Both the position numbers and the translations under genes were made by a program. A stretch of DNA of 64,000 bases from positions 34,103-98,102 of IMG/VR virus record IMGVR_UViG_3300037423_001065; one strand, given 5' to 3'. The notes under the pieces are model-generated. The model did not search any database and was not told where the DNA came from. It saw only the letters and a list, made by a program, of their open reading frames with translations. The stretch is from a virus. Below, piece by piece: positions 3,613 through 61,879 of this stretch (position 1 is the stretch's first letter; every line of letters starts with the position of its first letter).

Positions 3613-3826
3613 CCTGGAGTTCTGGTACCGCGCCAAGTACAACCTCACCGCGACCGACCCGCGGTTCCTGGCGGCCACGATCGAGGAGATGGCCGCCGAC
3701 TACTGGGCGTGGTTCTTCAAGGAGAACCCCAAGGCGACGATCGAGGACGAGGACGAGGACTTTAACCTTGACGAGGTCCTGAAACAGATGGAGGAGAACC
3801 CGGAGGACTGGGTGACCCTCACGTAG
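3560..3826 (+). CDS. Tail assembly chaperone frameshift extension (gpGT-like, +1 frame)
   Basis: Protein-like +1 frame (LEFWYRAKY...DEDFNLDEVL) without a well-spaced own start; TCC TTT CGA at 3553-3561. Confidence 0.7.
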   Translation, partial: EANRKRLSKEAGKRRASSLEFWYRAKYNLTATDPRFLAATIEEMAADYWAWFFKENPKATIEDEDEDFNLDEVLKQMEENPEDWVTLT

Positions 3827-3841
3827 ACGGGACAACATAAT
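3826..3841 (+). promoter_or_regulatory. Variant late-promoter motif before tape measure gene
   Basis: GACGGGAC-aa-CATAAT (6/8 match plus strong -10). Confidence 0.5.
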
Positions 3842-3850
3842 CGAGCGACC

Positions 3851-6739
3851 ATGGCCGGTATCAAAATCCCAGTAGAGGCAGCGTTCGACAAGGGCGATGC
3901 CGACCGTGTCGTAAACGACTTCGCCGAGCAATTCAACAAGCTCGGCGCCGCGATCGCCCAGGCGAACAAGCAGCGCTTCAACCCGATCGACCGCGCGTCG
4001 ATCGAGGACTTGAAGCGGCTCCAGGCCGGGTTCGAAAGCCTCAAGCGCGTGTCGGGCGACATGCGCAAGCGCCTCAAGGCCACCGGCCAGGCCGACAAGC
4101 CGTTCTTCGATGTGGACTGGCGCCAGATGTACCCGGACGAGCACTCTCGCAACCGGCAGATGCAGAAGGCGTTCGACTACGTCACCGGTGGCGGCCGCTT
4201 CCAGGCGCCGGCGCCTCCCCCGACCCCCGCGCCTGGCGGCCGGCCCGCGTCGCCCCCTCCTGGCCCGCCCGCGCCTCCTGCGCCCGGTGGTGGTGGCGGC
4301 GGCGGCGGCGGCGGTGGTGGTGGTGGTGGCGGCCAAATGCGCAACATCCTGGGCGCCGGCCTCAACGCCATGGGGCCAGTCGGCCAGGTCGCGAACGCCG
4401 GCCTCTCCGCCGGCATGTCCGCGGGCCTGGGCGCCGGCATCGGTGCCGCCGTCGGCATGGCGGCGATCAAGGTCATCGGCGCGATCGCGAACAAGATCGC
4501 CGCCGCGCAGCAAGAGTTCATCGGCTATGACACCCTCAAGCGCCAGCTCGGCGACGTGGGGGTCAGCTTCGAGACGTTGAAGGAGTCGCTGCGCGAGGCG
4601 TCGCGCGGCCTCGACATGACGTTCGAGGAGGGCCAGAAGCTCGGCTCGCAATTCGCGAAGCTGTCGGGCATGACCGCGGACCAGTACAAGACCCTGGCCG
4701 AGGAGGTCAACACGGCCGGCGGCTTCGGTCGCTCGTTCGGCATGGACCCGGCGCAGAGCACGCAGTTCTTCGCCCAGATGCGGCTTTTCCAGGTCACGCA
4801 GTCCCAGGAGGACAGCCGGCGCCTGGCGCTCGTGATCGGCGAAAGCCTCGCCAAGTCGAAGTCCTTCGCGAAGGCCGACGAGGTGCTGGAGGCGATCGCC
4901 GGATTCACCGCGCAGCAAACCCGCATCGGCATGAACGCGGCGAACGCCGAGGGCTATACGAGCTTCTACACCGGCATGGTGGGCTCGCGCATCCCGGGCA
5001 TGGACCCCGCGAGCGCCGCGGCGCTGCTCGGGCGCGCCAACTCGACGTTCGCCAGCGGCGGCGGCGCCGGCGAAGCGGGCCAGAACTTCATCTACCAGGC
5101 GATCGGCGGCCAGCTTGGCCTGGACCCCATCCAGACTGCGCTGCTGCGCGAGCAGGGCCTGTTCGGCACCGGCCGCGGCACCTTCGGCGACAAGTCCACC
5201 TTCGGCCAGTTCGCCAAGAAAAACGGCCTTGATACGCCTGGCGCCGCGGGCTCCGACGCGACCAACCTCGAGCTGATCATGCAGCAACTGAATCGGGTCT
5301 ACAGCCGACCCGACCAGGCGATGCTCAGGGTCAACGCCATGTCGAACCTGTTCGGCGTGAACAACAGCCAGGCCATGGCCCTGTCGATGGTGGAGCCGGC
5401 GCAGCTTGGCGGCATCGGGAAGCGGCTGAAAAAGCTCGGCATCAACCTGAACGACGTAGACGCGACCGGCATTTCTCGCCTCTCGCAAATCGAAGCCGAC
5501 GGCTCGCTATCCGACAAGGAGAAGGACGCCCAGACGCGCGAGGCGGCGAAGCAGCACCAGGAGCAAACCGAGGGCTCGCGCACGCGCGCGACGATCAACG
5601 GCGTGGAGCGCGCCGTGCAGGACCTGGCCGGCAAGTCGGTACCTCTGCTCAACGACATGCGCGCCGGCATTATGTTCCTGGCCGGCGAGCGCAACGGGAT
5701 GAGCTCGCGCCAAATCAAGGAGCGGGTCGCCGAGCTCGACGCGAACGACCGCATCGGGCAAATCAACAAGGACTTCGAGGCCAAGCTGCCGGCCGCGCGC
5801 ACCGACATTGAAAAGGCCGAGGCCGAGTACAACAAGGCGTTCGAGGAGCATCGCACCAAGGGCCCGAAGATGACGCCCGAGGAGCGCGCGGCGTCCGAGA
5901 AGCACCTGGGCGAGCTGCGCGACAAGCGCGATCGCGCGAAGCAGCGCATCCCGCAGATGCGCGCCGAGGCCGACGCGAAGATCGAGGACGAGCGCCGCGC
6001 GCTCAAACAGGAAATCGCCGCCATCCGCACGCCGGTGTCCGACAACCGCGTGAACATGGAGGACTATGACAAGGGCGGCGTCGGCGGCGGCCGCGGCTCC
6101 GTCAACCCGCCTCTGCTCGGCGACACCGAGAAGCGCTCCAGCGACTCCACGACGCCCTACAAGGTCAGCGCCGCGGACCTGGCGGAGTTCGAGAAAACCG
6201 ACAGCATGATCGGCGCGCCGAAGGGCTTCTCGCGCGCGCAAATCGAGCAGGAGAGCGGATTCGACCCGAACGCGGTCAGCAAGAAGGGCGCGATGGGCTT
6301 CGCCCAGGTCATCCCGTCAACGCTGGCGGCGCTCGAGAAGCGCCTGGGCCGCAAGCTGGACCCTTCGAACATGCAGGACGCCATCATCATCCAGCGCGAG
6401 CTGATGGTCGAGAACACCCGGCATTTCGGCGGCGACTGGCGCAAGGGCGCCATGGCGTACAACTCCGGCTGGGACCCTTCGAAGTGGGGTAACGCCGAGA
6501 CCGCGACGTACCTGCCGTCGATCGAGGCGCGCATGGGCAAGGCCGGCACGACGACCGACTCCATCACGCCGCTGCCGCGGTCGGCGTCGGAGACCGAGCA
6601 GGCTCGTGCGCGCGACGAGTTCCGCCGCTTCGAAATCAGCGGAACCTTCCAGTTGAACGGCCCGAACGGCATGCCTGCAGCGCCGCCCGTGCAGGCGATC
6701 GCCACGGCGCGCGGCGCGGCGCGTCCGACGGGGACCTGA
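3851..6739 (+). CDS. Tape measure protein with C-terminal lytic transglycosylase (SLT) domain (962 aa)
   Basis: Position after chaperones; Ala/Gly-rich helical sequence; IEQESGFDPNAVSKKGAMGFAQV...AYNSG SLT motifs. Confidence 0.88.
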   Translation: MAGIKIPVEAAFDKGDADRVVNDFAEQFNKLGAAIAQANKQRFNPIDRASIEDLKRLQAGFESLKRVSGDMRKRLKATGQADKPFFDVDWRQMYPDEHSRNRQMQKAFDYVTGGGRFQAPAPPPTPAPGGRPASPPPGPPAPPAPGGGGGGGGGGGGGGGGQMRNILGAGLNAMGPVGQVANAGLSAGMSAGLGAGIGAAVGMAAIKVIGAIANKIAAAQQEFIGYDTLKRQLGDVGVSFETLKESLREASRGLDMTFEEGQKLGSQFAKLSGMTADQYKTLAEEVNTAGGFGRSFGMDPAQSTQFFAQMRLFQVTQSQEDSRRLALVIGESLAKSKSFAKADEVLEAIAGFTAQQTRIGMNAANAEGYTSFYTGMVGSRIPGMDPASAAALLGRANSTFASGGGAGEAGQNFIYQAIGGQLGLDPIQTALLREQGLFGTGRGTFGDKSTFGQFAKKNGLDTPGAAGSDATNLELIMQQLNRVYSRPDQAMLRVNAMSNLFGVNNSQAMALSMVEPAQLGGIGKRLKKLGINLNDVDATGISRLSQIEADGSLSDKEKDAQTREAAKQHQEQTEGSRTRATINGVERAVQDLAGKSVPLLNDMRAGIMFLAGERNGMSSRQIKERVAELDANDRIGQINKDFEAKLPAARTDIEKAEAEYNKAFEEHRTKGPKMTPEERAASEKHLGELRDKRDRAKQRIPQMRAEADAKIEDERRALKQEIAAIRTPVSDNRVNMEDYDKGGVGGGRGSVNPPLLGDTEKRSSDSTTPYKVSAADLAEFEKTDSMIGAPKGFSRAQIEQESGFDPNAVSKKGAMGFAQVIPSTLAALEKRLGRKLDPSNMQDAIIIQRELMVENTRHFGGDWRKGAMAYNSGWDPSKWGNAETATYLPSIEARMGKAGTTTDSITPLPRSASETEQARARDEFRRFEISGTFQLNGPNGMPAAPPVQAIATARGAARPTGT
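4286..4333 (+). repeat. GGT/GGC trinucleotide tract encoding Gly16 after a Pro-rich linker
   Basis: Read directly from sequence. Confidence 0.9.
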
Positions 6740-6740
6740 G

Positions 6741-8231: not shown

Positions 8232-9094
8232 GCCTGCGTCTGGGCCGCGTCGCGGCAGTTCACCCCGAAGATCACAGCGTCGACCTGGTCATGACGGACG
8301 ACGGCTCGCGCCTGGCCGGCGTGCAGGTCATGTCCGGCGCGGCGACGACGAACACCGGCAGCAACGACCTGGCGGACATTTCGATTCCATCGAGCGGCGA
8401 CCCGTGGGACCTCACGACGCAAACCGACCGCGACGCGATGGCCGTCGTCGGTTTCTTCGGCCGGCACCCGATCGTGCTGGGCTTCCTGTTCCCGCAGGTG
8501 TGCCAGATGACGTTCGATCGCAAGAACTTCTCCGTCCACCGTCACCCGTCCGACGTGTACGTGGCGATCGACAACGACGGCAACACCGAGGTCTACCACC
8601 CCAGCGGCACCTTCCTGCGCATCGGCGCGTCGCCGGCGCACGAGGACCTGACCGGCAAGGACGTGGACGGCGAGTGGAAGATCGCCAAGAACACCGACTC
8701 GGCACCCTATGTGCACCTGGTCACGGCCGCCGCCGGCGCCGTCAAGGCGGACCTCCAGATTGACCCTGCCGGCAACATCAGCCTGGACCACGTCGGCAAC
8801 CTCACGTCGCACACCGCCGGCAACGCCGCCGTGACCGTCGACGGGACCACGACCGTGACCTCCGGCGGCAATGCGCACGTCACGGCGCCCCAGCTCCTGG
8901 TCACGTGTCCGGATACCACGTTCACAGGGCACGTCGCCATCCAGGGCGGCCTGGCCGTCTCCGGCGGCGAAGGCGCGGCCGTCTCCGGCAACCTGGCGGC
9001 GACCGGCGGCAGCTTCACGCACAACAGCGTGAACGTCGGCTCGACGCACCATCACTCTGACCCGCAAGGCGGAAACACCGGCGGCCCGTCGTGA
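8228..9094 (+). CDS. Baseplate spike (gpV-like, 288 aa)
   Basis: N-terminal OB-like GRVAAVHP; beta-helix repeats; C-terminal THHHS...TGGP metal-binding tip. Confidence 0.88.
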   Translation: MSLRLGRVAAVHPEDHSVDLVMTDDGSRLAGVQVMSGAATTNTGSNDLADISIPSSGDPWDLTTQTDRDAMAVVGFFGRHPIVLGFLFPQVCQMTFDRKNFSVHRHPSDVYVAIDNDGNTEVYHPSGTFLRIGASPAHEDLTGKDVDGEWKIAKNTDSAPYVHLVTAAAGAVKADLQIDPAGNISLDHVGNLTSHTAGNAAVTVDGTTTVTSGGNAHVTAPQLLVTCPDTTFTGHVAIQGGLAVSGGEGAAVSGNLAATGGSFTHNSVNVGSTHHHSDPQGGNTGGPS

Positions 9095-9103
9095 CCTTAC
9101 GCT
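9088..9103 (+). promoter_or_regulatory. Late-promoter motif; leaderless start at 9110
   Basis: GTCGTGAC-ct-TACGCT-6 nt-ATG. Confidence 0.75.
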
Positions 9104-9109: not shown

Positions 9110-10432
9110 ATGCCCTTCTTTCCGCCGTCCGGCGGCATCGAGCTGCCCACGTCGCTGCCGTCGCTGCCCAGCCTATCCGGCCTCACGAGCTCGCTCGCGT
9201 CGGCCGTCGGCTCGCTGACGGGCGCGCTGCCTGGCGCGCTGTCGGGAGCGTCGGGCACCCAGGCCGCCAGCTCGGCGCCTGACAGCCAGAAGGCCGGCGA
9301 GCGGCCCATTTCCTTCCTGCTGGACGACCAGTCGCTGGGCGTCGCCGAGCCGACGCCGTTCCTGGACTTGGTCATCCGGCCGGAGGAGCTGACGCGCACC
9401 GACCCGTCGCGCATCAATGTGCAGCAAACCCTGGGCGGCGCCTGGGCGGACAGCTTCGGCGCGGGCCTGCCGCAAATCACCATCAGCGGGCATACCGGCT
9501 GGCGCCGGCGCCCGTCGAGCGACCAGGACGGCGTCGACCGGTTCCTCGAGCTCAAGGACCAGGTCTTCGACCAGTGGCACCAGCGCCGCGACGCCGCAAC
9601 GCTGCGCGGCACGGACCCGAACAACGTGCGCCTGGTGTTCTCCGATGCCCTGGACGACTTCACCGTCGTCGTGGCGCCCATGAGCTTCGTCCTGCGCCGC
9701 TCGAAGTCGCGCCCGCTTCTGTGCCAGTACCAAATCGTCATGGTCGTGATCGACGGCGACCCCGGCATCGAGCGCGAGGACGACGCGGTCATGGACTCCG
9801 CGGCCGACCCCGCCATGCTCCAGGGCCTGGGCCTCACGAGCCTGACGGCATCGGTCGCCTCGATCACGGCGCAAATCGGCAACGTGCAGAAGATGGTCAA
9901 CGGCTCACTGGTCGCTCCGGTGCAGGCGTTCATGGGCCAGACCGCGCAGCTTTACGGCCAGGTGCGCGCCGCGATCACGGCCGGGAGCCAGCTCGCCGGA
10001 TCGTTGATCAGCGTCGCCCAGATGACCGCCCAGGCTGGCGTCAACATCTTTCGCAGCATCGCCGCGGTGGCGAGCATCCCGCAGATTGCGAAGGCGCAGC
10101 TCATGTCCGTGGCGAGCGCCTACTCCAACATCTCGTGCGTGCTGAATAACGCGCTGCACCAGCAAATCTACTTCCAGGACTATTCCGCCGTGTACGGGGC
10201 GAGCAACTGCTCGAGCACGTCGGGCGGCCGCCCCATCAGCTCGCTCGCCGGCGTGAACCCGTTCTACAGCGCGGTTCCGACGCCGATCGCGTTGCCGATC
10301 AACCTCACCCAGGACGCGCAGACCGCGTTCCGCACCTTCGCCAGCGCCGACAACGTCCTGGCGCCCATCTCGCCCGCCGCCTTGACCTCGGGCCTGTCCT
10401 CCATCGCCAGCGGCTTCTCGATCAGCGTATGA
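9110..10432 (+). CDS. Baseplate/tube-initiator-like structural protein (440 aa)
   Basis: Within baseplate cluster; QTLGGAWADSFG..ITISGHTG motif; function inferred. Confidence 0.55.
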   Translation: MPFFPPSGGIELPTSLPSLPSLSGLTSSLASAVGSLTGALPGALSGASGTQAASSAPDSQKAGERPISFLLDDQSLGVAEPTPFLDLVIRPEELTRTDPSRINVQQTLGGAWADSFGAGLPQITISGHTGWRRRPSSDQDGVDRFLELKDQVFDQWHQRRDAATLRGTDPNNVRLVFSDALDDFTVVVAPMSFVLRRSKSRPLLCQYQIVMVVIDGDPGIEREDDAVMDSAADPAMLQGLGLTSLTASVASITAQIGNVQKMVNGSLVAPVQAFMGQTAQLYGQVRAAITAGSQLAGSLISVAQMTAQAGVNIFRSIAAVASIPQIAKAQLMSVASAYSNISCVLNNALHQQIYFQDYSAVYGASNCSSTSGGRPISSLAGVNPFYSAVPTPIALPINLTQDAQTAFRTFASADNVLAPISPAALTSGLSSIASGFSISV

Positions 10433-11046
10433 GCCAATTCGACCGCCCGATGATCGGCTTCCGGTTCGTGACCACGGACGTGGGGGACACGCTGCAGGAA
10501 ATCGCCGCGCGCGAGCTCGGCGACGCGTCGCGCTGGACCGAAATCGTCGCGTACAACAACCTGGTGCCGCCGTTCATCACGGACGACGCCGACGAGGCCG
10601 GACCTGGCGTCATCCTGACCGGCTCGCGGATTCGCTTGCCGGCGCCGTCGACGCAGGTGTCCGCGCGCCTTTCCGCCGACCAGGCGTTCGGCACCGACAT
10701 GCGCCTCGATCGCGGCGCGCTCGCCGTGACGGACGCCGGCGACTTCGACGTGGTGTCCGGCTCCGCCAATCTCGTACAGGCGCTGAGCAACCGAGTCGTC
10801 ACCGAGCGCGGCGAGCTCGTTTTCCATCCGCGCTACGGCTGCGAGACGCGTCGCCTGGTCGGCCTGGCGAACGGCCCCACCAAGCGGCTCCTGGCCGCGC
10901 AGTCCGCGAAGGCGGCCGTGCGCCAGGACCCGCGGGTGACGCGCGTCACCAAGGCGATCGGCAGCGTCAACGGCGATGTGATTGCCGTCGGCGTCGTGGC
11001 GGAGACCGTGCTCGGCTCCGGGGTTCAAGTCGTGGCGAAACCGTAA
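10429..11046 (+). CDS. LysM-like plus gp25/W-like baseplate wedge protein (205 aa)
   Basis: GDTLQEIAARELGDASRW (LysM-like); NLVQAL...GELVFHPRYG...QDPRV (gp25-like). Confidence 0.8.
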   Translation: MSQFDRPMIGFRFVTTDVGDTLQEIAARELGDASRWTEIVAYNNLVPPFITDDADEAGPGVILTGSRIRLPAPSTQVSARLSADQAFGTDMRLDRGALAVTDAGDFDVVSGSANLVQALSNRVVTERGELVFHPRYGCETRRLVGLANGPTKRLLAAQSAKAAVRQDPRVTRVTKAIGSVNGDVIAVGVVAETVLGSGVQVVAKP

Positions 11047-13385: not shown

Positions 13386-13880
13386 GTGAAATTCTTCGAC
13401 CGCTTCAAGAAGGGCCCCGAGGGCCATCTCGTGCTGAACGTGTTCCGGCACGGAAAGCTGATCGACCAGATGGACGAGCGCGATCGCATCATCGTCCCGC
13501 CGACCCTCATCGAGCGATTCAAGGGCAAGAACCTGATCGTGGACAGCTCCAAGCTGATTCACGCCAAGCTCCTCGGCGGCGACGTGGCGAACCGCAGCGT
13601 CTCCAAGTTCGGCGTGGGCACCAACGGCGCGGCGCCCGCCGGCGGCAACACTGCGCTGACGGCCGCCTACACCAAGGCCGTCGACGCCGTGAGCTACCCG
13701 GCCGTCAACCAGGTCGCGTTCGACTTCTCGCTCGCGACCGGCGAGGCCAACGGCAAGGCCATCCTCGAGTTCGGCCTGTTCACCACGGGTGACGTGCTGT
13801 ACGCGCGCAAGATTCGCGCGACCCCGCTGAACAAGGAAGCCGACATTTCGTTCGCCGGCACCTGGACCATCAGCTTCTAG
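13386..13880 (+). CDS. Tail fibre attachment/baseplate-associated protein (164 aa)
   Basis: AGGAG RBS plus GTG; KNLIV...FGVGT...EANGKAILEFGL pattern. Confidence 0.7.
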   Translation: MKFFDRFKKGPEGHLVLNVFRHGKLIDQMDERDRIIVPPTLIERFKGKNLIVDSSKLIHAKLLGGDVANRSVSKFGVGTNGAAPAGGNTALTAAYTKAVDAVSYPAVNQVAFDFSLATGEANGKAILEFGLFTTGDVLYARKIRATPLNKEADISFAGTWTISF

Positions 13881-16151: not shown

Positions 16152-16167
16152 GTCGTGACCGAACAAT
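16152..16167 (+). promoter_or_regulatory. Late-promoter motif for lysis cassette
   Basis: GTCGTGAC-cg-AACAAT immediately after terminator. Confidence 0.75.
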
Positions 16168-17884: not shown

Positions 17885-18144
17885 TGCGTGCGCTGTCGAT
17901 CGCCTGCCTGGCGGCCTTCCTGGCCGCCTGCAACACCCTGCCGCGCGAGGTGAAAGTCCCCGTGACGGTCTACTGCAAGGTCGAGAAGCCGGCCGAGCCC
18001 GCCTGGGCGACGAAATCGCTCAAGCCGGACGCCGACATATTCGACCAGGTCAAGGCCCTGCTGGCCGAGCGCAAGCAGCGCATCGGGTACGAGCGCCTGC
18101 TCGAGGCCGCGGTCGACGGGTGCCAGCCGCCGGCCGGCCGCTAG
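17881..18144 (+). CDS. Outer-membrane spanin lipoprotein (Rz1-like, 87 aa)
   Basis: Lipobox LAAC; Pro-rich; follows i-spanin. Confidence 0.85.
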   Translation: MMRALSIACLAAFLAACNTLPREVKVPVTVYCKVEKPAEPAWATKSLKPDADIFDQVKALLAERKQRIGYERLLEAAVDGCQPPAGR

Positions 18145-18290
18145 GCGAAAATCCGCTGCGCCTTGTCGGCGAGCTCTTGCTGGCGCAGCATGATGCGCGG
18201 CACGTCCGGGTGTAGCGGGTCGATTTCCGACATGGCCCAGCGGTAGAACGCCTGGGCGACCATGACGTGGATGAGGCTGAGAATCTTCAC
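18141..18290 (-). CDS. 49-aa hypothetical protein absent from the ORF track (MKILSLIHV...AQRIFA)
   Basis: GTG 18290 to TAG 18141; fills the gap exactly; preceded by late-promoter motif at leaderless spacing. Confidence 0.7.
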   Translation of the reverse strand: MKILSLIHVMVAQAFYRWAMSEIDPLHPDVPRIMLRQQELADKAQRIFA

Positions 18291-18296: not shown

Positions 18297-18312
18297 ACCT
18301 TAGCGTCACGAG
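18297..18312 (-). promoter_or_regulatory. Late-promoter motif variant; leaderless start at 18290
   Basis: CTCGTGAC-gc-TAAGGT-6 nt-GTG on minus strand. Confidence 0.65.
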
Positions 18313-26585: not shown

Positions 26586-26595
26586 CGGGCTCCTC

Positions 26596-26747: not shown

Positions 26748-26999
26748 GTGCCCGCCGCCGAGACGAAACCGTACGACGAGGAGTTCCGCGATCGACTACA
26801 GAAGATCGAGGCGGACGTGCTCGAGCTCGGTCTGAACTTCACCGTGATCTGTAGCCGCGCCGGCATCAGCCGCGCGACACCCGACCGCTGGAAGCGGCAC
26901 ACGCCCAAGACCATCGCGCTGGTCGCGAAGGTGGAAAGCATCATCGCCGAGGAGCGCGCCAAGCTGCCGCGCCGTCGCCCGGCACGCAAGAGGGCATAG
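26748..26999 (+). CDS. Cro-like HTH regulator (83 aa)
   Basis: FTVICSRAGISRATPDRWK HTH; first gene after divergent promoters. Confidence 0.7.
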   Translation: MPAAETKPYDEEFRDRLQKIEADVLELGLNFTVICSRAGISRATPDRWKRHTPKTIALVAKVESIIAEERAKLPRRRPARKRA

Positions 27000-30134: not shown

Positions 30135-30150
30135 GTCGTGACATGAGCAT
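30135..30150 (+). promoter_or_regulatory. Late-promoter motif inside replication block
   Basis: GTCGTGAC-at-GAGCAT, intergenic. Confidence 0.65.
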
Positions 30151-39523: not shown

Positions 39524-39547
39524 CGCTTTATCTCCTAGTACACCCCG

Positions 39548-39638: not shown

Positions 39639-39665
39639 AGAGGGGTAGATTAAAGGAGCGAAACG

Positions 39666-43369: not shown

Positions 43370-43673
43370 CTTCATCATCACGGTGAGCACGAATTACAAC
43401 GGCTACAACCCTCAGCCCAGGTTCGAGCATCCGCCGACGTTCAAGCCTGGGCGCTGGCGCCGCGACAGCGTGTTTCGCGAGCAGGTGCATTACGGCCGCT
43501 TCGCGTGCTACGCCCTGGGCAAGTCGCCGCCGATCGAGCTCGAGCCCGAAACCATGATGGCCCAGGTGCCCGTAGAGGTCCTGGCGAAGATTCAGATGGC
43601 GCTGGCGACCGGCGTCGTGCCGCGCGGCCTCAAGTCCCAGCTCGCGGCGATCGTGGCCGAGGCGACGCGTTAG
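43356..43673 (+). CDS. Hypothetical protein (105 aa)
   Basis: GGAG RBS; last gene before convergence. Confidence 0.6.
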   Translation: MAKPDFIITVSTNYNGYNPQPRFEHPPTFKPGRWRRDSVFREQVHYGRFACYALGKSPPIELEPETMMAQVPVEVLAKIQMALATGVVPRGLKSQLAAIVAEATR

Positions 43674-44341
43674 CCAGCGCTGGCGGCCAGGATTTGGTTG
43701 AGGCCAGGGTTCACCTGGTCGGTGCCACGGAACACCTCGAGGTTGTCCAGGCGATACACGGTGATCGTGTCGCCCACGATGCGCGTGTGCAGCACCCAGT
43801 TGTGGCGGTAGGCCCACTGCGACGCTGCCGTGCGCACGGCCTGGTGCATCTCGTACCCGGTGAACGCGACGGCCTGGTGGGTGTCCAGGGCGCTCAGCGT
43901 GATCGAGTGGCGACGCGGGCGGCCGGCGCTCACCTGGGCGTCGTCGGACAGGCGCGTGACGCGGATCGCGTTGCCCTGGCGCTCGCAGCGGAATTTCTTG
44001 CCGGCCGTGGTTTTCATCTTCGCGCTGGCGGCCTGGCGCACCTTGTAGTGGTCCTCGAGCGGCACGTCGAACACGTGCGACTCGCCCACCTCGAGGTGGT
44101 CCATGGGCGCGTAGCGACTGGTCGGCGCGCCCTTCCTGGAGTCGTCGCGCGTGACGCGGACGCCGGTCTCCTCGTCGGCCAGGGCAACGCCCAGGTCACG
44201 CGAGCGGGCAAATCGGTGGACCTCAGCGCTGATTTGTTGCGCGGCAGAGGTGTCGCATCTGATAAGCACCGACTGACCGTTTTCCTTGGCCGTGAGGGCC
44301 ATGACGGCGCGGCGGACTCTTAATAGGGTGTCTGCGTCCAT
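43670..44341 (-). CDS. Three-repeat small alpha/beta-domain protein next to origin (223 aa)
   Basis: Three units ending GVRVTR, AIRVTRL and TITVYRL; own promoter motif at 44401-44416. Confidence 0.7.
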   Translation of the reverse strand: MDADTLLRVRRAVMALTAKENGQSVLIRCDTSAAQQISAEVHRFARSRDLGVALADEETGVRVTRDDSRKGAPTSRYAPMDHLEVGESHVFDVPLEDHYKVRQAASAKMKTTAGKKFRCERQGNAIRVTRLSDDAQVSAGRPRRHSITLSALDTHQAVAFTGYEMHQAVRTAASQWAYRHNWVLHTRIVGDTITVYRLDNLEVFRGTDQVNPGLNQILAASAG

Positions 44342-44361
44342 ATATTCGGGGCTGTTGAGGT

Positions 44362-44651
44362 GGTAACGGTATCAGGTGGGGCAACTGAGCCGGTAACTGG
44401 ATTATCGAGTCACGACAAGGACTTGGGCCGGATGTTACCCGGTTACCGGGGATCGGGCCGGGAAATACATCCCTCTCAGAATACACGATACATACATTCC
44501 ACACAATGATCATGAATATATGTAGAACCTCGCCCTATGTATATATCTATATCTATTCAAGGTAACATGGTAACAGTAACAGGGAAACTTGAACGGAATC
44601 AAGGACTTAGGCTGTTACCACGGACCGTTACCGGGCCGCTACCGCGTTACC
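44362..44651. other. Putative replication origin: GGTAAC/GTTACC iterons, AT-rich core, IHF site
   Basis: About 10 iterons in both orientations; TATGTATATATCTATATCTATT; AATCAAGGACTTA at 44597-44609 matches WATCAAN4TTR. Confidence 0.7.
44401..44416 (-). promoter_or_regulatory. Late-promoter motif inside origin region
   Basis: GTCGTGAC-tc-GATAAT on minus strand. Confidence 0.65.
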
Positions 44652-44809
44652 AGGCCAGGCAGTGGCGCCGGAACCACGGTTTTGTAGGACCGCGCTGATG
44701 CCTCAGCGTAGGACTAGGGAGACTGTTGGTTACAGGATGTAAAATATCAGCACTGGCTCAGCGCTTCCATAGAATCCCGCCTCAGCCGCATATATCCGGG
44801 GGGACTCTT

Positions 44810-45343
44810 ATGCAGGTTGAGTACCATTCGATCGCCCTCACGCCGGGCATCCTCTACTTCGATTGCCAGCACCTCAAGGCCAGGCTGAGCACGGGCTCGT
44901 GCGCCTCAATGTGGCGCGCCAGCAACGGCCCGGGATGCGGCGACCAGGCCCGGGAGAGCTGCAAGCGCTGCCCCCTGGGCGCCCTGCACGCCGGCGAGGC
45001 TGACGCCTCCACCTCGAGCCTGGCCGGCTCCAAGGTCTGCTCGCGCTGCCATCGGCCGGCGCCGCGCCTGATCGGCGGCATGCACTGCGTCTCGTGCAAG
45101 AACCGCGAGTACGAGTTCATGAAGGGCAAGAACGCGAAGGGCACGACGCCGGTCAAGCTCGCATGCCTGGCGCGCCGGCGCATCCGCTTCATGGCGGGCG
45201 GCGAGCTGCGCACGTCGACGGCGCCCTTCACCCTGGACGACGCCGAGCTGATCATCTCGGCGCTGCGCGACAACAAGTCGGTCGTCCGCTTCGGCCTGGC
45301 GCCATGCGTCACGCCGGCCCTGCGTCAGATGCGGCTGTTCTGA
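44810..45343 (+). CDS. Cys-rich protein ending QMRLF (177 aa)
   Basis: Multiple CxxC pairs; TAGAAT -10 upstream. Confidence 0.7.
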   Translation: MQVEYHSIALTPGILYFDCQHLKARLSTGSCASMWRASNGPGCGDQARESCKRCPLGALHAGEADASTSSLAGSKVCSRCHRPAPRLIGGMHCVSCKNREYEFMKGKNAKGTTPVKLACLARRRIRFMAGGELRTSTAPFTLDDAELIISALRDNKSVVRFGLAPCVTPALRQMRLF

Positions 45344-45344: not shown

Positions 45345-45635
45345 GTGGCGCGCACCCTGACCGGCCTTGTCTCCCTCACGGACCACGTCTGCGCTGCCTG
45401 CTTCGGGCGGATCGTCAAGGGCGAGCGACCGCTCGACTGCACCGACGACCATGCGCACCGCTGGACCTGCACCAACTGCGGCGCCGAGACCGTGCACCGC
45501 GAGGTCTCGAGCATCTGCTCGTGCGGCATCCGCACCAAGACCGGCCGCGACGCCGGCGTGCGCTGTGAGCGAAACCCGACACCGACACCCGAGTTCCCCA
45601 GCCTGATCGTTGCCGCGCAGAGCGTGCCGGCCTAG
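45345..45635 (+). CDS. Zn-ribbon protein (96 aa)
   Basis: CAAC-x22-CTNC plus CSC. Confidence 0.65.
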   Translation: MARTLTGLVSLTDHVCAACFGRIVKGERPLDCTDDHAHRWTCTNCGAETVHREVSSICSCGIRTKTGRDAGVRCERNPTPTPEFPSLIVAAQSVPA

Positions 45636-48362: not shown

Positions 48363-48835
48363 CCCACAAGACCTACGCGTTCCGCAAGCCCGCCGCGGTC
48401 AAGAAGCTCGAGAAGGCCCTCGAGTTCCTGGCAGCACCGCACAGCGCCCAGGAGCTCGCGGCCCACCTGCACCTGGCGAAGCGCACCACGGTGCAGTACC
48501 TGGACTTCCTGCGCGGCGTCGAGCGCGACGGCGTCCCGCCTGGCCCGCGCCGCGTGCGCATCGCCGACTGGCGCATCGGCTCCGGCCCGCCCGTCGCGCT
48601 GTTTCAGGTGATCGAGCCAGGCGGCCGCTCGAGCGATCGCCGGCGGCCGAACAAGCGCACCGTCACCCAGCGCCGGCGCGACCTGCGTGAGAAATTGCGC
48701 GTGACCGACCCCGACGAGCTCGCGCGTCGCAACGCCGAGCGCCAACGCAAGCGCCGCGGCGCCCGTCGTGACCCAATGATCGAGGCATTGTTTGGAAAGC
48801 CCAACGATGCCAGTAGGACGAAAGCCGGGACTTAA
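48359..48835 (+). CDS. Winged-HTH-like protein (158 aa)
   Basis: SAQELAAHLHLAKRTTVQYL; GTGA overlap. Confidence 0.7.
   Translation: MTHKTYAFRKPAAVKKLEKALEFLAAPHSAQELAAHLHLAKRTTVQYLDFLRGVERDGVPPGPRRVRIADWRIGSGPPVALFQVIEPGGRSSDRRRPNKRTVTQRRRDLREKLRVTDPDELARRNAERQRKRRGARRDPMIEALFGKPNDASRTKAGT
48765..48780 (+). promoter_or_regulatory. Late-promoter motif within 3' end of upstream gene
   Basis: GTCGTGAC-cc-AATGAT, 26 nt before ATG 48807. Confidence 0.55.
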
Positions 48836-49097
48836 CCGGAACGACACGCCGTACCGCGCGCTGTCGCACCTCGCGAACACCGGACCGCAGGAGGAGGCGA
48901 CGCTGCGCGCCTTCATCCGCGCGCTCGCCTCCGGCTCGAACGACCCGCAGAAGGCGGCGTACCACGTCCTGCACGGGCTCGCCAAGCGCGGCCTGGTGCG
49001 CACCAAGGTCTGGCTGACGCCCGAAGGGCTCGAGGAGCTGCGCCGCACCGGCTGGACGCCGGCCCGCCTCGAGGACGAGGAGCCCGTCGAGCCGTGA
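48807..49097 (+). CDS. Winged-helix-like protein (96 aa)
   Basis: LAKRGLV...LTPEG. Confidence 0.6.
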   Translation: MPVGRKPGLNRNDTPYRALSHLANTGPQEEATLRAFIRALASGSNDPQKAAYHVLHGLAKRGLVRTKVWLTPEGLEELRRTGWTPARLEDEEPVEP

Positions 49098-53174: not shown

Positions 53175-53489
53175 ATGCCCAACACGAGTACGAAATTCAA
53201 ACCGCCGGCGCCCGACGATGAGCTCTGGTACTTCCCCAGCGCCGAGCTCCCGCGCGGGCCCCGCGGCACCCTGGCGATGGGCAAGCTGCGCGGCCTGCCG
53301 GCGATCGTCACCAACGTGCACACCGCGCGCGTGGTGGACATTGAAGTCACCGACGCGAAGGGCGACGCGCACCGCTTCAACGGCGTCACGCTGCTGCAAG
53401 AGGGCGACCCGCATCCGCTGCCGCTCATGGGCCACTGCCAGTGGCACCAGAGCCCGTGGCCGGAGCAATCTCCCGCCGACGGCGAGTGA
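53175..53489 (+). CDS. Hypothetical protein (104 aa)
   Basis: GAGGAGG RBS; PAIVTNV. Confidence 0.7.
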   Translation: MPNTSTKFKPPAPDDELWYFPSAELPRGPRGTLAMGKLRGLPAIVTNVHTARVVDIEVTDAKGDAHRFNGVTLLQEGDPHPLPLMGHCQWHQSPWPEQSPADGE

Positions 53490-53503
53490 CGTGACGGTAG
53501 CCT
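53488..53503 (+). promoter_or_regulatory. Late-promoter motif; leaderless start at 53510
   Basis: GACGTGAC-gg-TAGCCT-6 nt-ATG. Confidence 0.7.
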
Positions 53504-54148: not shown

Positions 54149-56268
54149 GCGGAAGATACAAGCCGCACGGCGGCGGCCGCGGCAACCCGCCGCCGCGCAA
54201 GCCCGACCTGCTCGCGTTCATGACCTCCGGCCTCGAGGAGACCATGGCCGCGATCGAGGAGGCGACCGGCGTCAACCGCGAAACCCTGGTGATCGCCGAC
54301 GGCGTGACGTTCCGCCAGTGGTGCGAGGACCTGGGCTCGAAGGGCCTCAAGGTGGACGGCAAGCCGTTCCGCCTGGACGACCGGCCGGCCATGGCGTGGG
54401 TCTATGACCAGGTGCCCGGCACGATCGACCAGGCGTACCGCTACATGCTCGTGATCATGAAGTGCGCCCAGGTCGGGTTCACGGTCATGGAGATGCTGGC
54501 GACGATCTACCTGGGCCTCAAGTTCGGCCGCAAGCTCGGACAGTGCACGATCGGCATGTTCCTGCCCGACATGAACCTGGCCGGCGTCAAGTCGACCGAG
54601 CGCTTCATGCCCGTGGTGCGCAGCGTGCCCGAGGTGCACGCGCTCATGACGCAGGACGCGCCCGACGGCAGCGGCCGCAAGCAGGGCGAGGGCAACGTCA
54701 ACCGCCGGCGCATCGACTCCGCGCTGTTCATCTTCTCGTGGACCAGCGGCCGGGCGACGACCGAGTCCATCCCGATGGACGTGCTGTCGTTCGATGAGGT
54801 CCAGGAGATGACCCTGGACCAGATTGAAAAGACGATCGAGCGCCTGTCGGCGTCGCCGCTGCGCACGCTGCAAATGGGCTCGACGGCCAACTGGCCGGAC
54901 GCCGACATTGACCACTGGTACAAGCGCGGCACGCGGTTTCGCTTCCACACCCGCTGCAGGACGTGCGGCAGCATGAAGCCGCTCGATGACTATTTCCCCG
55001 AGTGCATCCGCCTGGACAAGGAGCGCGACACCTACCGCTACGTGTGCCCGAACGGCCACTGGATAGACGACAGCCAGGACGGCGAGTGGATCGCCGAGCA
55101 CCCGGAGCGCGACCCGGGCCCGCAGCTCGACGTGCCGCTCAAGGACCGGCGCCTGCGCATCCGCTCGATTCACTTCCCCCAGTTCCTGTCGCCCACCATC
55201 AGCCCCGAGGAAATTCTGTCGGCCTACAACACGGCGACCGACATGAAAAACTTCTTCAACCGCAAGCTGGGCAAGCCGTACCTGGACCCGAGCCAGGTCC
55301 CGGTGACGCTCGAGCACCTGGCGGCGTGCGTGGAGGCCGGCAAGGCCGCCGGCGTGAAGTGGAAAACCCGCGGCAAGGGTTGCTACATGGGCATCGACCA
55401 GATGGGCAACTTCAACGTCGTCGTGATCAAGGAGCGCCTGGCCGACGGCCGCCAGGCCGTGGTGCACGTCGAGATGATCTACAGCGCCGACCCGTTCGCG
55501 CGCTGCGACGAGCTCATGGGCGCCTTCGGCGTCGCCGTGTGCGTGGTGGAAATCAACCCGAACTACAACGACGCGAAGCGCTTCGCGAACCGCTGGCGCG
55601 GCCGCGTGTTCATCTGCGACAGCTTCGGCCGCATGGCGGAGGGCATGATCGCCTGGGGCGATGCGCCGAAGCTGGACGTGAGCGAGCGGCGCACCGACGA
55701 GGCCGAGCGCGACCGCTACACGCTCAAGATGGACCAGTACAAGTGCATGCAGGTGTCCATGGCGCGGTTCACCGCGAAGGAGCCGCTGTGCGTGTTCCCG
55801 GACCCGCAGGGCCTGGTGCAGGAGGTCAAGGAGAAGGGCATCGCCCAGACCGCGGCCGTGCTGCCGATCGCGTTCACCCACTTTACGAAAACCGCCCTGG
55901 TCGCCGAGAAGGACGAGGAGACGAACCAGTTCAAGCGGTCGGTCAAGAAGATCGGCATTGACCCGCACTTTTCGTACGCCAACATGCTGTGCGACGTGGC
56001 CTGGGCGCGATCGCACGGCACCGCGACGTTCCTCATCCCCGACACGGAAGGACCTTCCATGGAACCCGCCGATCAACTCCGGCGCGCCGGCATGCCCGAG
56101 ACCGTCGCCCAGATGGTGGAGGCGCAGTCCCAGGGCCTGGCCGACACCTGCGGCAACTGCGCGGCCGCGTACAACGACGATGGCGAGTGGACCGGGCGGT
56201 GCGCCGAGCGACACTTCGTCATCCGTAAGGAGCTCGCCGCCTGCCCTCTTTTCCTGACCAAGTCGTGA
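54145..56268 (+). CDS. Terminase large subunit, GpA-like (707 aa)
   Basis: IMKCAQVGFT deviant Walker A; LSFDE Walker B; Zn motifs; FFNRKLGKPY; MGID nuclease; DPHF. Confidence 0.93.
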   Translation: MSGRYKPHGGGRGNPPPRKPDLLAFMTSGLEETMAAIEEATGVNRETLVIADGVTFRQWCEDLGSKGLKVDGKPFRLDDRPAMAWVYDQVPGTIDQAYRYMLVIMKCAQVGFTVMEMLATIYLGLKFGRKLGQCTIGMFLPDMNLAGVKSTERFMPVVRSVPEVHALMTQDAPDGSGRKQGEGNVNRRRIDSALFIFSWTSGRATTESIPMDVLSFDEVQEMTLDQIEKTIERLSASPLRTLQMGSTANWPDADIDHWYKRGTRFRFHTRCRTCGSMKPLDDYFPECIRLDKERDTYRYVCPNGHWIDDSQDGEWIAEHPERDPGPQLDVPLKDRRLRIRSIHFPQFLSPTISPEEILSAYNTATDMKNFFNRKLGKPYLDPSQVPVTLEHLAACVEAGKAAGVKWKTRGKGCYMGIDQMGNFNVVVIKERLADGRQAVVHVEMIYSADPFARCDELMGAFGVAVCVVEINPNYNDAKRFANRWRGRVFICDSFGRMAEGMIAWGDAPKLDVSERRTDEAERDRYTLKMDQYKCMQVSMARFTAKEPLCVFPDPQGLVQEVKEKGIAQTAAVLPIAFTHFTKTALVAEKDEETNQFKRSVKKIGIDPHFSYANMLCDVAWARSHGTATFLIPDTEGPSMEPADQLRRAGMPETVAQMVEAQSQGLADTCGNCAAAYNDDGEWTGRCAERHFVIRKELAACPLFLTKS

Positions 56269-56278
56269 TCCGAACCAT
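56262..56278 (+). promoter_or_regulatory. Variant late-promoter motif
   Basis: GTCGTGAT-ccg-AACCAT overlapping terminase stop. Confidence 0.5.
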
Positions 56279-56304: not shown

Positions 56305-57063
56305 ATGAACACGATGCGATGGGTGCTGATCGACCGCAGCGCCGGCGCCAAGACCTCCGACGGCTCGCAGCTATCCGCCGCCGTCCTGCAACAAATCGCT
56401 GACGCCGTCCAGGCGCAAATCAACGGCGAGTTCTCGGCCGAGTGGGGCGCGCAGTGCTCGATTCGCGTCGCCGCCGACGCCCATGACGTGCACGCCGGCG
56501 AGTGGGCCTTCGCGTTCCTGCCCAGCCTGCCGGACGCGCCCGACGCCAGCGCCTATCACGACGTAAAGGCGGGCGTGCCGTACTCGCTGTGCGCCGTCAC
56601 GACCTGCGCGAGCCTGCTCGGACCCGACGGCATCAGCGTGGACGTGTCGCACGAAATCCTCGAGACGTTCGGCGACCAGGGCGCGAACCTGTACGCCTTC
56701 GATGGGCACGGCAAGCTGCACGCCGTCGAGATGTGCGACGCCGTCGAGATGCAGACGTACGTCAAGACGGCGAAGGACGGCACCGCGGTGCACGTGTCCA
56801 ACTGGCTCACCCGGGCGTTCTTCGTGCCTGGCGCCAAGGGCCCGTTCGACTACATGACGGCCGCCGGCATGCAGCCGGCCAGCAAGGGCCCGGCCGGCCC
56901 GTTCAAGACCGCGGCCGGCCACGGCGGGAACTACCAAATCGTCGGCAAGTGGGGCGGCACCGCCGGCCAGGTCACGGCGCACGAGCTCGTCGGCGCCAGG
57001 CGCAAGGGCGTGACACCGCACTGGAGCGCCCGCATGGCGAAGCGCATCGCGCGCGCGTCGTGA
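56305..57063 (+). CDS. Putative metal-dependent hydrolase (252 aa)
   Basis: AYHD...SHEILE...EMCD motifs; AAGGA RBS. Confidence 0.6.
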   Translation: MNTMRWVLIDRSAGAKTSDGSQLSAAVLQQIADAVQAQINGEFSAEWGAQCSIRVAADAHDVHAGEWAFAFLPSLPDAPDASAYHDVKAGVPYSLCAVTTCASLLGPDGISVDVSHEILETFGDQGANLYAFDGHGKLHAVEMCDAVEMQTYVKTAKDGTAVHVSNWLTRAFFVPGAKGPFDYMTAAGMQPASKGPAGPFKTAAGHGGNYQIVGKWGGTAGQVTAHELVGARRKGVTPHWSARMAKRIARAS

Positions 57064-57072
57064 CCGCAACAT
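57057..57072 (+). promoter_or_regulatory. Late-promoter motif
   Basis: GTCGTGAC-cg-CAACAT. Confidence 0.7.
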
Positions 57073-57099
57073 GAGGTTTTCGGCAACGGGAACCGCACC

Positions 57100-57432
57100 A
57101 TGTCCTACTCCTTCACCGTCAAGGGCCGCACCGTCGCGAAGGCCCTCGAGAACGCCGCCGCGGCCTTCGACAAGATGGCCGAGACGCAGACCATCCACAA
57201 GCGCGATCGCGACGCGCACCTGGCGAACGTGTCCAACCTGGGCAACCTGCTGGGCGCCAAGCGCGACGACCAGGTCGTCGTGATCGCCATGAACGGCTCG
57301 CTCGGCTGGTCCGGCTCCTTCGATGAGAAGGCGCCCGAGAACGTGCTCATCACGAGCTCGAGCGGCAGCGCGTCGGTCTACTACACCGACGAGAACGCCA
57401 CGTTCCTCAAGGACGTGCAGGGCGAGCTGTGA
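57100..57432 (+). CDS. Hypothetical protein (110 aa)
   Basis: Good codon usage; follows motif. Confidence 0.7.
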   Translation: MSYSFTVKGRTVAKALENAAAAFDKMAETQTIHKRDRDAHLANVSNLGNLLGAKRDDQVVVIAMNGSLGWSGSFDEKAPENVLITSSSGSASVYYTDENATFLKDVQGEL

Positions 57433-57695
57433 TCAACCGCGTCCTGCTCGGCGCCATGGTGGCCCTCTGGTCACTGGCGTGCGTCGTGCTGGGCGCGGCC
57501 GCCTTCCCGCAGGCGCACGCGGCACCGGTCGAGTCCCCCGGCTCGGCCGAGCTGACAGTCGCCTTCCTGTGCGTGGACGGCAAGGCGGTGGGGATGCACC
57601 TCGCCGCCCCGACGGCAGGCTCATGGTCGATTCGCTTCGACCATGAGCTGTGCCGGCCGGCTCCCGCGCCGCGGCGTGTCACGCCGCTGTCGTGA
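57429..57695 (+). CDS. Secreted/membrane protein (88 aa)
   Basis: Signal-like N-terminus ending AHA; GTGA overlap. Confidence 0.6.
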   Translation: MINRVLLGAMVALWSLACVVLGAAAFPQAHAAPVESPGSAELTVAFLCVDGKAVGMHLAAPTAGSWSIRFDHELCRPAPAPRRVTPLS

Positions 57696-57704
57696 CAACA
57701 GGAT
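57689..57704 (+). promoter_or_regulatory. Late-promoter motif
   Basis: GTCGTGAC-aa-CAGGAT. Confidence 0.7.
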
Positions 57705-57753
57705 GCAGGTTCTCGTTGCATCGAGAACCATCCATCCTCCAAGGAGCCTCATC

Positions 57754-58074
57754 GTGAAATCACACCGCAGCATCTGGGCCGCCATCGCCGGCGCCATCAT
57801 CTTCGCCCTGTCCTGGCTGGACCCGGTCTACGATCGCGTCGCCGCCGCCTGGGAACGCGCCGTCGTCCGCACGCGCGACCTCTGGGAGGCCGCCTGCCTC
57901 AAGGTCAGCCAGGCGATCGACAAGGCCCTGAGCCTGTTCGCGCCCGGCGGCGTGTTCTCCGTGCACCTGCAGCGCCTGGCCGACGCCGTCAAGACGACCT
58001 ACCGCACCTGGCGCGACCGCAAGGCCGACCACTACCGCGCGCCGGGTTCCTGGGTGAGCTGCGCGAGCACCTGA
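57754..58074 (+). CDS. Membrane-anchored hypothetical protein (106 aa)
   Basis: AAGGAG RBS plus GTG; N-terminal hydrophobic helix. Confidence 0.65.
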   Translation: MKSHRSIWAAIAGAIIFALSWLDPVYDRVAAAWERAVVRTRDLWEAACLKVSQAIDKALSLFAPGGVFSVHLQRLADAVKTTYRTWRDRKADHYRAPGSWVSCAST

Positions 58075-58092
58075 CACCCGCCCCGCGGAAGC

Positions 58093-58121
58093 AAAAAGGC
58101 CGGCGAAACCCGGCCTTTTTT
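58093..58121. terminator. Bidirectional intrinsic terminator
   Basis: AAAAAGGCCGG-loop-CCGGCCTTTTTT. Confidence 0.85.
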
Positions 58122-58125
58122 CATG

Positions 58126-58141
58126 GTCGTGACCGCACTAT
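58126..58141 (+). promoter_or_regulatory. Late-promoter motif
   Basis: GTCGTGAC-cg-CACTAT right after terminator. Confidence 0.75.
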
Positions 58142-58177: not shown

Positions 58178-58399
58178 ATGACCACTCCCACTCCCGCGAA
58201 GCAGGCCCGCCTCAATAAGACGAACAAGGTGAAGATCGGCGACGCGATGGCCGACCTGATCGCCGCGCACAACGACCTCAAGGCAAAGTTCATCGCCCTG
58301 GCGGCCAAGCTGGACGCCGACGCCGGCGTCACGGACACGAACTACTCCACGACCTGCGCGCCGACCATCGGCACCGTCAAGGACCTCGAGTCGCGCTGA
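58178..58399 (+). CDS. Small coiled-coil, possibly virion-associated protein (73 aa)
   Basis: GGAG RBS; LIAAHNDLKAKFIALAAKLD. Confidence 0.65.
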   Translation: MTTPTPAKQARLNKTNKVKIGDAMADLIAAHNDLKAKFIALAAKLDADAGVTDTNYSTTCAPTIGTVKDLESR

Positions 58400-61535: not shown

Positions 61536-61537
61536 GC

Positions 61538-61783
61538 TCAGTCCGCCGACTTGCGCGAGGGCCAGGCCGCCATGGCGTCGCGCGTGGCGATCGCGTCCCT
61601 GATCTTCGGGTGCTCGAAGCCGAGGGTCTTGACGTTGAGGTCGATCCAGCGCTGCACGACTTCGTCGGCGCTGGCGTCCTGCGCGCGGAGCACGAAAATC
61701 GGCTCGTCGTCGCCGCACTTCGGCAGGCAGGTGTCGTTGGTCTTGGTGTGGGCCTGGGGTTGGGCCTGGTTCGAGGTGGGCAA
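61538..61783 (-). CDS. Hypothetical protein (81 aa)
   Basis: AGGAGG RBS plus TTG; DEPIFVLRAQD motif. Confidence 0.7.
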   Translation of the reverse strand: MPTSNQAQPQAHTKTNDTCLPKCGDDEPIFVLRAQDASADEVVQRWIDLNVKTLGFEHPKIRDAIATRDAMAAWPSRKSAD

Positions 61784-61812
61784 AGTCGCCTCCTGGGGTT
61801 GATGGTTCCTCA

Positions 61813-61842
61813 ATTATGGTGCACTTGATCAAAAAAGCGCAA
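61813..61842 (-). promoter_or_regulatory. Sigma70-like promoter with TTGATCAA box in spacer
   Basis: TTGCGC-18-CATAAT; TTGATCAA at 61825-61832. Confidence 0.75.
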
Positions 61843-61863
61843 GACCGGATTCCAGCCGGCGTT

Positions 61864-61879
61864 GTCGTGACACTACCCT
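61864..61879 (+). promoter_or_regulatory. Late-promoter motif; leaderless start at 61886
   Basis: GTCGTGAC-ac-TACCCT-6 nt-ATG; no SD. Confidence 0.75.

Follow-up and report, generated by a model that had tools for sequence, protein, structure and literature searches.

A recurrent octamer next to a -10-like hexamer as a probable -35-less late promoter class in a clade of ~90-kb myoviruses

A 64-kb stretch of viral DNA carries, ahead of many of its genes, a 16-nucleotide (nt) composite motif, i.e., the octamer GTCGTGAC, 2 nt and a NANNNT hexamer, and the question that it raises is whether this motif is a promoter, to which class it belongs and what reads it. The stretch analyzed (hereafter the window) comprises bases 34103-98102 of one 98,102-bp virus record (68% GC), IMGVR_UViG_3300037423_001065. 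A first-pass annotation, made from the letters alone, had proposed a late promoter specific to this phage. We consider it likely that GTCGTGA(C/T)-N2-NANNAT represents a class of promoters from which this phage and its clade transcribe their morphogenesis, packaging and lysis genes, with a sigma70-type -10 element, the octamer in place of a -35 element and a probable phage-encoded reader acting on the host polymerase. For this analysis, 121 genes (g1-g121) were called across the record with a simple GC3-based open reading frame (ORF) picker. Gene functions were assigned by orthology from the annotation of Bordetella phage vB_BbrM_PHB04 (Phabquatrovirus), with which the 98-kb genome is collinear at ~40-75% protein identity, and by Pfam and PHROG scans. 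Looser kin are Pseudomonas phages Dolphis, Jeremy and Touem01, E. coli phage ECML-606-1, Enterobacter phiT5282EW, Aeromonas ST4, Yersinia fHe-Yen8-01 and Morganella Mecenats66, the clade being one of ~90-kb myoviruses that infect very different bacteria.

The octamer was present at all ten positions that the first-pass annotation had listed, in each case with the quoted hexamer, bearing A at position 2 (A2) and T at position 6 (T6), 2 nt later. These ten composite sites are given below, with positions counted in the window here and throughout unless the genome is named.

9088..9103, plus strand: GTCGTGAC-ct-TACGCT, 6 nt before the ATG of g32 (virion/baseplate protein, 9110-10432), leaderless mRNA predicted; the TGA of the motif is the g31 stop codon
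13346..13361, plus strand: GTCGTGAC-ac-CAGAAT, followed by a 24-nt leader with AGGAG, then g36 (13386-13880) and the tail fibre gene g37
16152..16167, plus strand: GTCGTGAC-cg-AACAAT, abutting a terminator, before the lysis cassette of holin-like g38 (16197) and endolysin g39
30135..30150, plus strand: GTCGTGAC-at-GAGCAT, before g59 (30205-30459, PHROG of unknown function), within the replication module
44401..44416, minus strand: GTCGTGAC-tc-GATAAT, 114 nt before g87 (43670-44302), in an intergenic region rich in GGTAAC/GTTACC
48765..48780, plus strand: GTCGTGAC-cc-AATGAT, before g95 (48792-49097, weak winged-helix match)
57057..57072, plus strand: GTCGTGAC-cg-CAACAT, before g108 (57100-57432); the TGA of the motif is the g107 stop codon
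57689..57704, plus strand: GTCGTGAC-aa-CAGGAT, before g110 (57754-58074); the TGA of the motif is the g109 stop codon
58126..58141, plus strand: GTCGTGAC-cg-CACTAT, abutting a terminator, before g111 (58178-58399)
61864..61879, plus strand: GTCGTGAC-ac-TACCCT, 6 nt before the portal ATG (61886)

By itself the octamer occurs 13 times in the window, as opposed to 4.1 +/- 2.1 times in dinucleotide shuffles, and 19 times in the whole genome, where 14 of the 19 copies have NANNNT after 2 nt. These 14 composite sites, ten of which fall inside the window, compare with 0.05 on average, and at most 2, in codon-preserving shuffles (n=300) that kept every protein sequence and the codon usage; this was the enrichment test that the first-pass annotation had named beforehand. 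All 14 are co-oriented with a gene start that lies 22-114 nt downstream, and a motif copy at genome position 1931 has no ORF downstream. The earlier site list had omitted three exact octamers, at 11119(-), 37972(+) and 56596(-), which we take to be chance copies because they lack the hexamer and are intragenic on the wrong strand.

Seven copies with one mismatch and a good hexamer, including those before the small terminase gene, a DarB-like gene and the baseplate J gene, showed the same orientation and placement relative to gene starts as the exact sites. The variants that were located within the window are as follows.

53488..53503 (genome 87590), plus strand: variant GACGTGAC-gg-TAGCCT, 6 nt before the small terminase ATG (53510), which is 22 nt from the start of the site
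18297..18312 (genome 52414), minus strand: variant CTCGTGAC-gc-TAAGGT, 6 nt before the GTG of g43 (18141-18290)
11029..11044, plus strand: variant GTCGTGGC-ga-AACCGT, 27 nt from the start of the site to baseplate J-like g34 (11056)
56262..56278, plus strand: variant GTCGTGAT with a 3-nt gap and AACCAT, 43 nt before g107 (56305); its TGA is the large terminase stop codon
3826..3841, plus strand: weak variant GACGGGAC-aa-CATAAT with two mismatches, 25 nt before tape-measure-like g29 (3851-6739)

Of the variants proposed earlier, those at 53488 and 18312(-) held up, whereas that at 56262 requires a 3-nt gap and that at 3826 is weaker; the copy at 11029 had been overlooked. As the first-pass annotation had noted, two sites, at 16152 and 58126, directly follow terminators of the hairpin-plus-T-run type, and the same is true of the sites at genome 1931 and 2166, outside the window. 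Its observation that the TGA of the motif five times doubles as the upstream stop codon was likewise borne out by our own gene calls (9088, 57057, 57689, 56262 and 18312(-)). Just 5' of the window, at genome 33958-33995, two overlapping divergent motif promoters, GCCGTGAC (-) and GTCGTGAC (+), appear to serve the divergent genes g23 and g24.

The consensus derived from 35 exact sites in four genomes was GTCGTGAC-(g/a)(c/g)-(C)A(c)(a)AT, in which A2 and T6 of the hexamer are invariant by selection of the sites and A5 is present in 26 of the 35. The octamer itself is an 8-bp imperfect palindrome. Since no base was conserved 5' of the octamer in these 35 sites, the motif would have no -35 element, and with the hexamer placed at -12 to -7 the octamer falls at -22 to -15. 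The earlier proposal of a -35-less promoter with its specificity element at about -22 to -15 has support in silico from the orientation of the sites, their position after terminators, the A2/T6 pattern, the placement of start codons and invariance across phages. On these grounds the motif is very probably a -35-less late promoter, promoter activity being what we infer from the observed enrichment, orientation, conservation and geometry.

Conservation of the motif across diverged phages is, in our judgement from sequence, the strongest evidence for the promoter reading. The 16-mer, with C or T as the last base of the octamer, recurs with the same geometry 7-13 times per genome in PHB04, Dolphis, ECML-606-1, ST4, fHe-Yen8-01 and Touem01 (GC 47-65%), almost solely on the strand of the structural genes, and 10-15 times in each of four complete IMG/VR genomes. 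A backwards version of the motif, used as a control, had 0 copies in five complete genomes. The search in related phages that the first-pass annotation had suggested thus returned 7-15 copies per genome, and the motif is common to the whole clade rather than specific to one phage. In 23 of 23 IMG/VR loci retrieved via the portal protein (52-91% portal identity, GC 43-68%), GTCGTGA(C/T) lies upstream of the portal gene, with the portal ATG 22-23 nt from the first G of the octamer in ~17 of the 23, and the DNA flanking the octamer cannot be aligned among these loci. An 8-mer that is unchanged from Enterobacterales to Burkholderiales argues for a phage-encoded reader or a very conserved surface of RNA polymerase. 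In Mecenats66 the octamer regulon has nearly been lost, with 2-3 sites remaining. Three copies of another sequence, ACTTTTTAT, were found in that phage before the portal, protease and major capsid genes (positions 31696, 39550 and 41267), and may be a replacement signal for the octamer.

Start codons follow the hexamer at a distance of 6 nt in the case of g3, g10, g32, the portal gene and the small terminase gene, which begin with ATG, and of g43, which begins with GTG; the distance is 7 nt for the protease gene and 9 nt for g24. In this genome, the start codon comes 5-7 nt after the hexamer at 5 of 15 GTCGTGA[C/T]-N2-NANNNT sites, and also at two one-mismatch variants, genome 87590 (ATG) and 52414 (GTG). 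Over seven genomes the figure was 27 of 75 composite sites, 20 of them with a spacing of exactly 6 nt. In PHB04, the independently annotated starts of the portal, protease and gp005 genes are exactly 22 nt from the first base of the octamer. All 27 starts at 5-7 nt in the seven genomes are ATG, compared with ~22% GTG or TTG starts among the genes of the present genome. Leaderless translation requires a 5' AUG, and we offer this as a fit to the exclusive use of ATG at 5-7 nt. As such an ATG stands where +1 would fall, leaderless mRNAs are predicted, and would make up about a third of the mRNAs driven by the motif. The remaining sites have leaders of 20-57 nt with a Shine-Dalgarno sequence of their own; leaders of variable length so equipped imply that the motif is not tied to translation.

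We propose that the hexamer serves as a -10 element of the sigma70 type, in which A-11 and T-7 are the melting bases, and that the invariant octamer at about -22 to -15 replaces the -35 element as the determinant of specificity. The reader of the octamer would probably be an early or middle protein of the phage by which the host sigma70 RNA polymerase is held or remodelled. Transcription would start ~7 nt after the T of the hexamer, which in approximately one-third of the sites is the A of an ATG. The RbpA/GcrA-like geometry that was suggested earlier is speculation.

Among known systems, the closest likeness is to phage P1, whose 11 late promoters need both Lpa, a DNA-binding activator, and the RNA-polymerase-associated host protein SspA (PMC10695390, PMC1891329). 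In the GenBank record of P1 these promoters are described as a 9-bp '-22 region', AAGTGACTT, followed after 4 bp by TANNNT, with no -35 element. The P1 late promoters (LPmat, LPpro, LPlyz, LPdar, LPs, LPsit, LPpac and others; Lpa is gp10) thus share with the present motif the missing -35 element and a short box directly 5' of a TANNNT-type hexamer, and both boxes contain GTGAC. Both phages have about a dozen copies before head, tail, lysis and packaging operons, and P1 is likewise a phage of ~94 kb with a contractile tail and DarB- and Ulx-like anti-restriction genes. However, the P1 box is a 9-bp palindrome that lies 4 bp from the hexamer and is centred near -22, whereas GTCGTGAC lies 2 bp from the hexamer and is centred near -18.5, i.e., ~3 bp nearer to the -10 element. 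In addition, the 11 P1 late promoters all lack an ATG at 5-7 nt from the hexamer, which about a third of the sites in the clade have. Searches of the whole genome for a homologue of P1 Lpa by phmmer and tblastn gave nothing below E = 0.9, although a very remote homologue could escape them, and no Lpa-like PHROG was matched among ~50 proteins. The two genomes are unrelated apart from DarB-like, Ulx-like and SSB genes. The motif therefore resembles the P1 class without being a member of it, given the differences in box sequence and spacing, the absence of Lpa and the small number of shared genes.

The first-pass annotation had set the geometry apart from that of T4 MotA, P2 Ogr and Mu C; the difference from Ogr, Mor and C stands, but the precedent of the P1 '-22 box' had been missed. 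The P2/186 Ogr-B and Mu Mor/C systems employ a phage-encoded activator of several late promoters, which is the role proposed here, and Ogr is a zinc protein, as the products of g88 and g89 (described below) appear to be. Ogr sites are centred at about -55, and Mor and C sites lie at ~-30 to -55, so that none of them abuts the -10 element. Extended -10 promoters (TGn) and the T4 late promoter TATAAATA (gp55/gp33/gp45) resemble the motif in being independent of a -35 element and in having their information at or just 5' of the -10 element. The conserved block of the motif, at -22 to -15, lies further upstream than theirs. At -15 the octamer has its invariant C (or T) while -14 and -13 vary, which leaves no extended -10 TG at -15/-14, and the hexamer keeps only A2, A5 and T6 rather than an element of the TATAAATA type. 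No gene for a gp55-like sigma factor was detected, as judged by sigma domains in the scanned proteins. A further likeness is to Thermus phage Lalka27a, in which transcript 5' ends have been mapped 6 nt downstream of TANNNT (bioRxiv 10.64898/2026.04.20.719267). Its late promoters are also -35-less, with a TANNNT-type -10 element, a phage-specific upstream position, many copies and mostly leaderless transcripts, the latter being predicted for part of the sites here. They differ in that specificity resides in the hexamer itself (TAGGGT) and in one C at -25, with no octamer; moreover, the phage lineage is unrelated and leaderless mRNAs are common in the Thermus host. The motif is best classed, from its sequence, with the activator-dependent, -35-less late promoters, as a variant with a box and spacing of its own. 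The accounts of Mecenats66 and Touem01 that were consulted describe no promoter motif, and a full-text literature search for the octamer gave only unrelated primer matches among the matches listed.

In a search for the reader, Pfam and PHROG scans of ~80 proteins, including giant proteins of 2151, 1525 and 2069 amino acids (aa), found no RNA polymerase, sigma, Lpa, Ogr_Delta or Mor domain, in agreement with the earlier remark that no sigma, Ogr or Mor gene could be recognized. The non-structural proteins of unknown function that are common to all motif-bearing phages are those of g50, g55, g60 (VRR-NUC-like), g88 and g89, and three of these genes were considered as candidates.

44810..45343, plus strand: g88, candidate reader; 177 aa, basic (isoelectric point, pI, 9.6), conserved in every motif-bearing phage
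45345..45635, plus strand: g89, candidate partner; 96 aa, zinc-ribbon-like, starting 2 nt after g88 and co-conserved with it
26748..26999, plus strand: g55, alternative candidate reader; 83 aa, basic (pI 10.2), a four-helix helix-turn-helix (HTH) protein

None of the three had an Ogr_Delta or Mor Pfam match at E <= 0.1. The g88 protein has eight invariant Cys residues (two predicted zinc sites), with a CxxC-x12-CxxC ribbon followed by the conserved helix CVSCKNREYE..GKNAKG, and its AF2 model is confident (pLDDT 89) and beta-rich. Neither Foldseek (E <= 0.001) nor VIA-align (Z above 2.6) gave a match to this fold. By sequence, g88 had no Pfam or PHROG match, its profile gave noise against PDB sequences and no match in the P1 genome, and the ESM Atlas returned unnamed viral clusters only. 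For g89, a weak zinc-ribbon likeness to eL43 was seen, and nothing stronger. The putative recognition helix of g55, (S/A)R(A/S)TP(D/N)RW, is nearly invariant across the clade, and BLAST matches to g55 are confined to phages that retain the octamer regulon; its model is of low confidence (pLDDT 64), with Xre/HipB-type HTH domains in all of the best Foldseek rows (E > 0.4). Mecenats66 keeps g88 and g89 at 32-36% identity and g55 only as a strongly diverged positional counterpart, a phyletic hint that comes from a single lineage and cannot decide between the candidates. We regard g88/g89 and g55 as about equally likely to be the reader, with about a quarter of the probability going to something else. 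In the fHe-Yen8-01 record, the homologues of g89 and g55 are both annotated as 'particle associated protein', and may be packaged in the virion if that annotation rests on virion proteomics.

We also weighed three other explanations of the motif. The one that survives best, albeit as an unlikely one, holds that a phage sigma-like subunit, of the T4 gp55 or phiEco32 gp36 type, replaces sigma70 and reads octamer and hexamer as a single extended -10 element, with a phage RNA polymerase as the extreme version. Such a subunit would suit the compact element without a -35, as at T4 late promoters, and the invariance of the 16-mer across hosts, and a highly diverged sigma-like protein can escape Pfam. 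However, the scanned proteins, the three giant ones included, yielded no Sigma70 or RNA polymerase domain, the conserved g88 is modelled as a beta-rich zinc protein rather than the all-helical sigma-2 fold, and the hexamer retains A2 and T6 only, which is typical of sigma70. We find it harder still to credit that the host RNA polymerase, by itself or aided by a conserved factor of the host, reads the motif with no need of a phage protein. Here the octamer would have to act from 2 bp upstream of the -10 element, which is incompatible with the spacing of sigma region 4, and it is not known to fit any host sigma consensus; phages of Enterobacterales, Aeromonas, Pseudomonas and Bordetella retain the same 8-mer, yet the genome has early promoters of the ordinary kind. 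The motif also precedes structural and lysis genes, which need delayed expression. These points outweigh, in our view, the host-type -10-like hexamer, the resemblance of GTGAC(A) to part of TTGACA and the requirement of P1 late transcription for host SspA. Very improbable, and the least so supported, is a role outside promoters, as an RNA-level signal (translation enhancer or processing site) or as a DNA site for modification, packaging or replication: the hexamer does sit where a Shine-Dalgarno sequence would be in the 22-nt cases, and the phage does encode several DNA methyltransferases and a Mom-like protein, but the start codon follows at anything from 22 to 114 nt, with an AGGAG in the longer leaders, sites directly follow terminators, the copy at genome 1931 precedes no ORF, and the A2/T6 pattern and strict orientation fit transcription and not a methylation site.

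Several points weigh against a late promoter class with a phage-encoded reader. No activator was identified by homology among the ~80 scanned proteins. Efficient leaderless translation is unusual in Proteobacteria, and the gene starts used here come from the simple GC3-based caller. The virus sequence was found in soil and rhizosphere DNA metagenomes only, and in no RNA run. Finally, the term 'late' is drawn from the functions of the structural genes only, and the sites at 30135, 44416, 48765 and 57057-58126 stand before small unknown genes of the early/middle region.

For the -35-less late promoter with a phage-encoded reader, late timing, host polymerase use and factor identity are what we infer in turn. 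A fuller version of this reading, which we advance tentatively and would not yet expect to prove correct in every part, is that a previously undescribed phage protein (g88 with g89, or g55) takes over the host sigma70 RNA polymerase through an 8-bp element 2 bp from the -10 element. The geometry would be unlike that of P1 Lpa, T4 MotA/AsiA or Ogr/Mor/C, and the protein would serve a late regulon with one-third leaderless mRNAs in phages of Enterobacterales, Aeromonas, Pseudomonas and Burkholderiales. The octamer reader would then probably be a new kind of RNA polymerase specificity factor, and conserved leaderless late mRNAs, if real, an unusual translation strategy for Proteobacteria. The motif map provides a complete, testable set of predicted late transcription units for a widespread, unstudied clade of ~90-kb myoviruses, some members of which have been cultured on E. 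coli, Yersinia, Aeromonas, Pseudomonas and Bordetella. The 16-mer also serves as a marker for the annotation of start codons and operons in phages of the clade.

The early intergenic regions carry ordinary promoters of the TTGnnn-N17/18-TAnnnT type, of which examples are given in the first two lines below; the third line gives the copies of a palindrome.

39523-39666: -35/-10 promoter TTGCGC-N17-TACATT and a divergent partner
26585-26748: -35/-10 promoters TTGATC-N18-TAAACT and TTGCCA-N17-GAGAAT
23830, 26596, 26632, 26688, 30872, 39181, 51431 and 61825: copies of the palindrome TTGATCAA

The palindrome TTGATCAA has 8 copies in the genome as opposed to 0.18 expected, all in the early/middle part and seven of them intergenic, and three copies flank the divergent promoters at 26585-26748. 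It was tested as an operator for g55, and is enriched here as well as in Touem01 (11 copies) and Dolphis (5) but absent from ECML-606-1; on account of this absence it is more likely an early promoter element that contains a -35. Its sequence suggests either an operator or the -35 portion (TTGATC) of the usual early/middle promoters.

Two further intergenic features were observed. Between the divergent genes g87 and g88, a 510-bp region (44300-44810) holds 9 of the 13 GGTAAC/GTTACC hexamers of the window, which may represent an operator array or the iterons of an origin or partition site. At 39555-39625, a large palindrome, GAACA..GCAAG..TTTTTTGAG-N9-CTCAAAAAA..CTTGC..TGTTC, separates two divergent canonical promoters and could be a bidirectional terminator or an operator.

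With respect to other genes, a temperate lifestyle, with ParA or an integrase, is predicted for relatives of this phage (PMC11256456; PHB04 annotation). The g62 product (33876-34382, minus strand) has a PHROG match to a Mom-like DNA modification protein (E = 5e-30), and a PAPS-reductase-like gene lies nearby (35727-36506). Outside the window, g1 (genome 2-1393, in the head module) encodes a RelA_SpoT domain (Pfam E = 2e-6), g6 an inorganic pyrophosphatase domain, and g17 methyltransferase and MptE-like domains.

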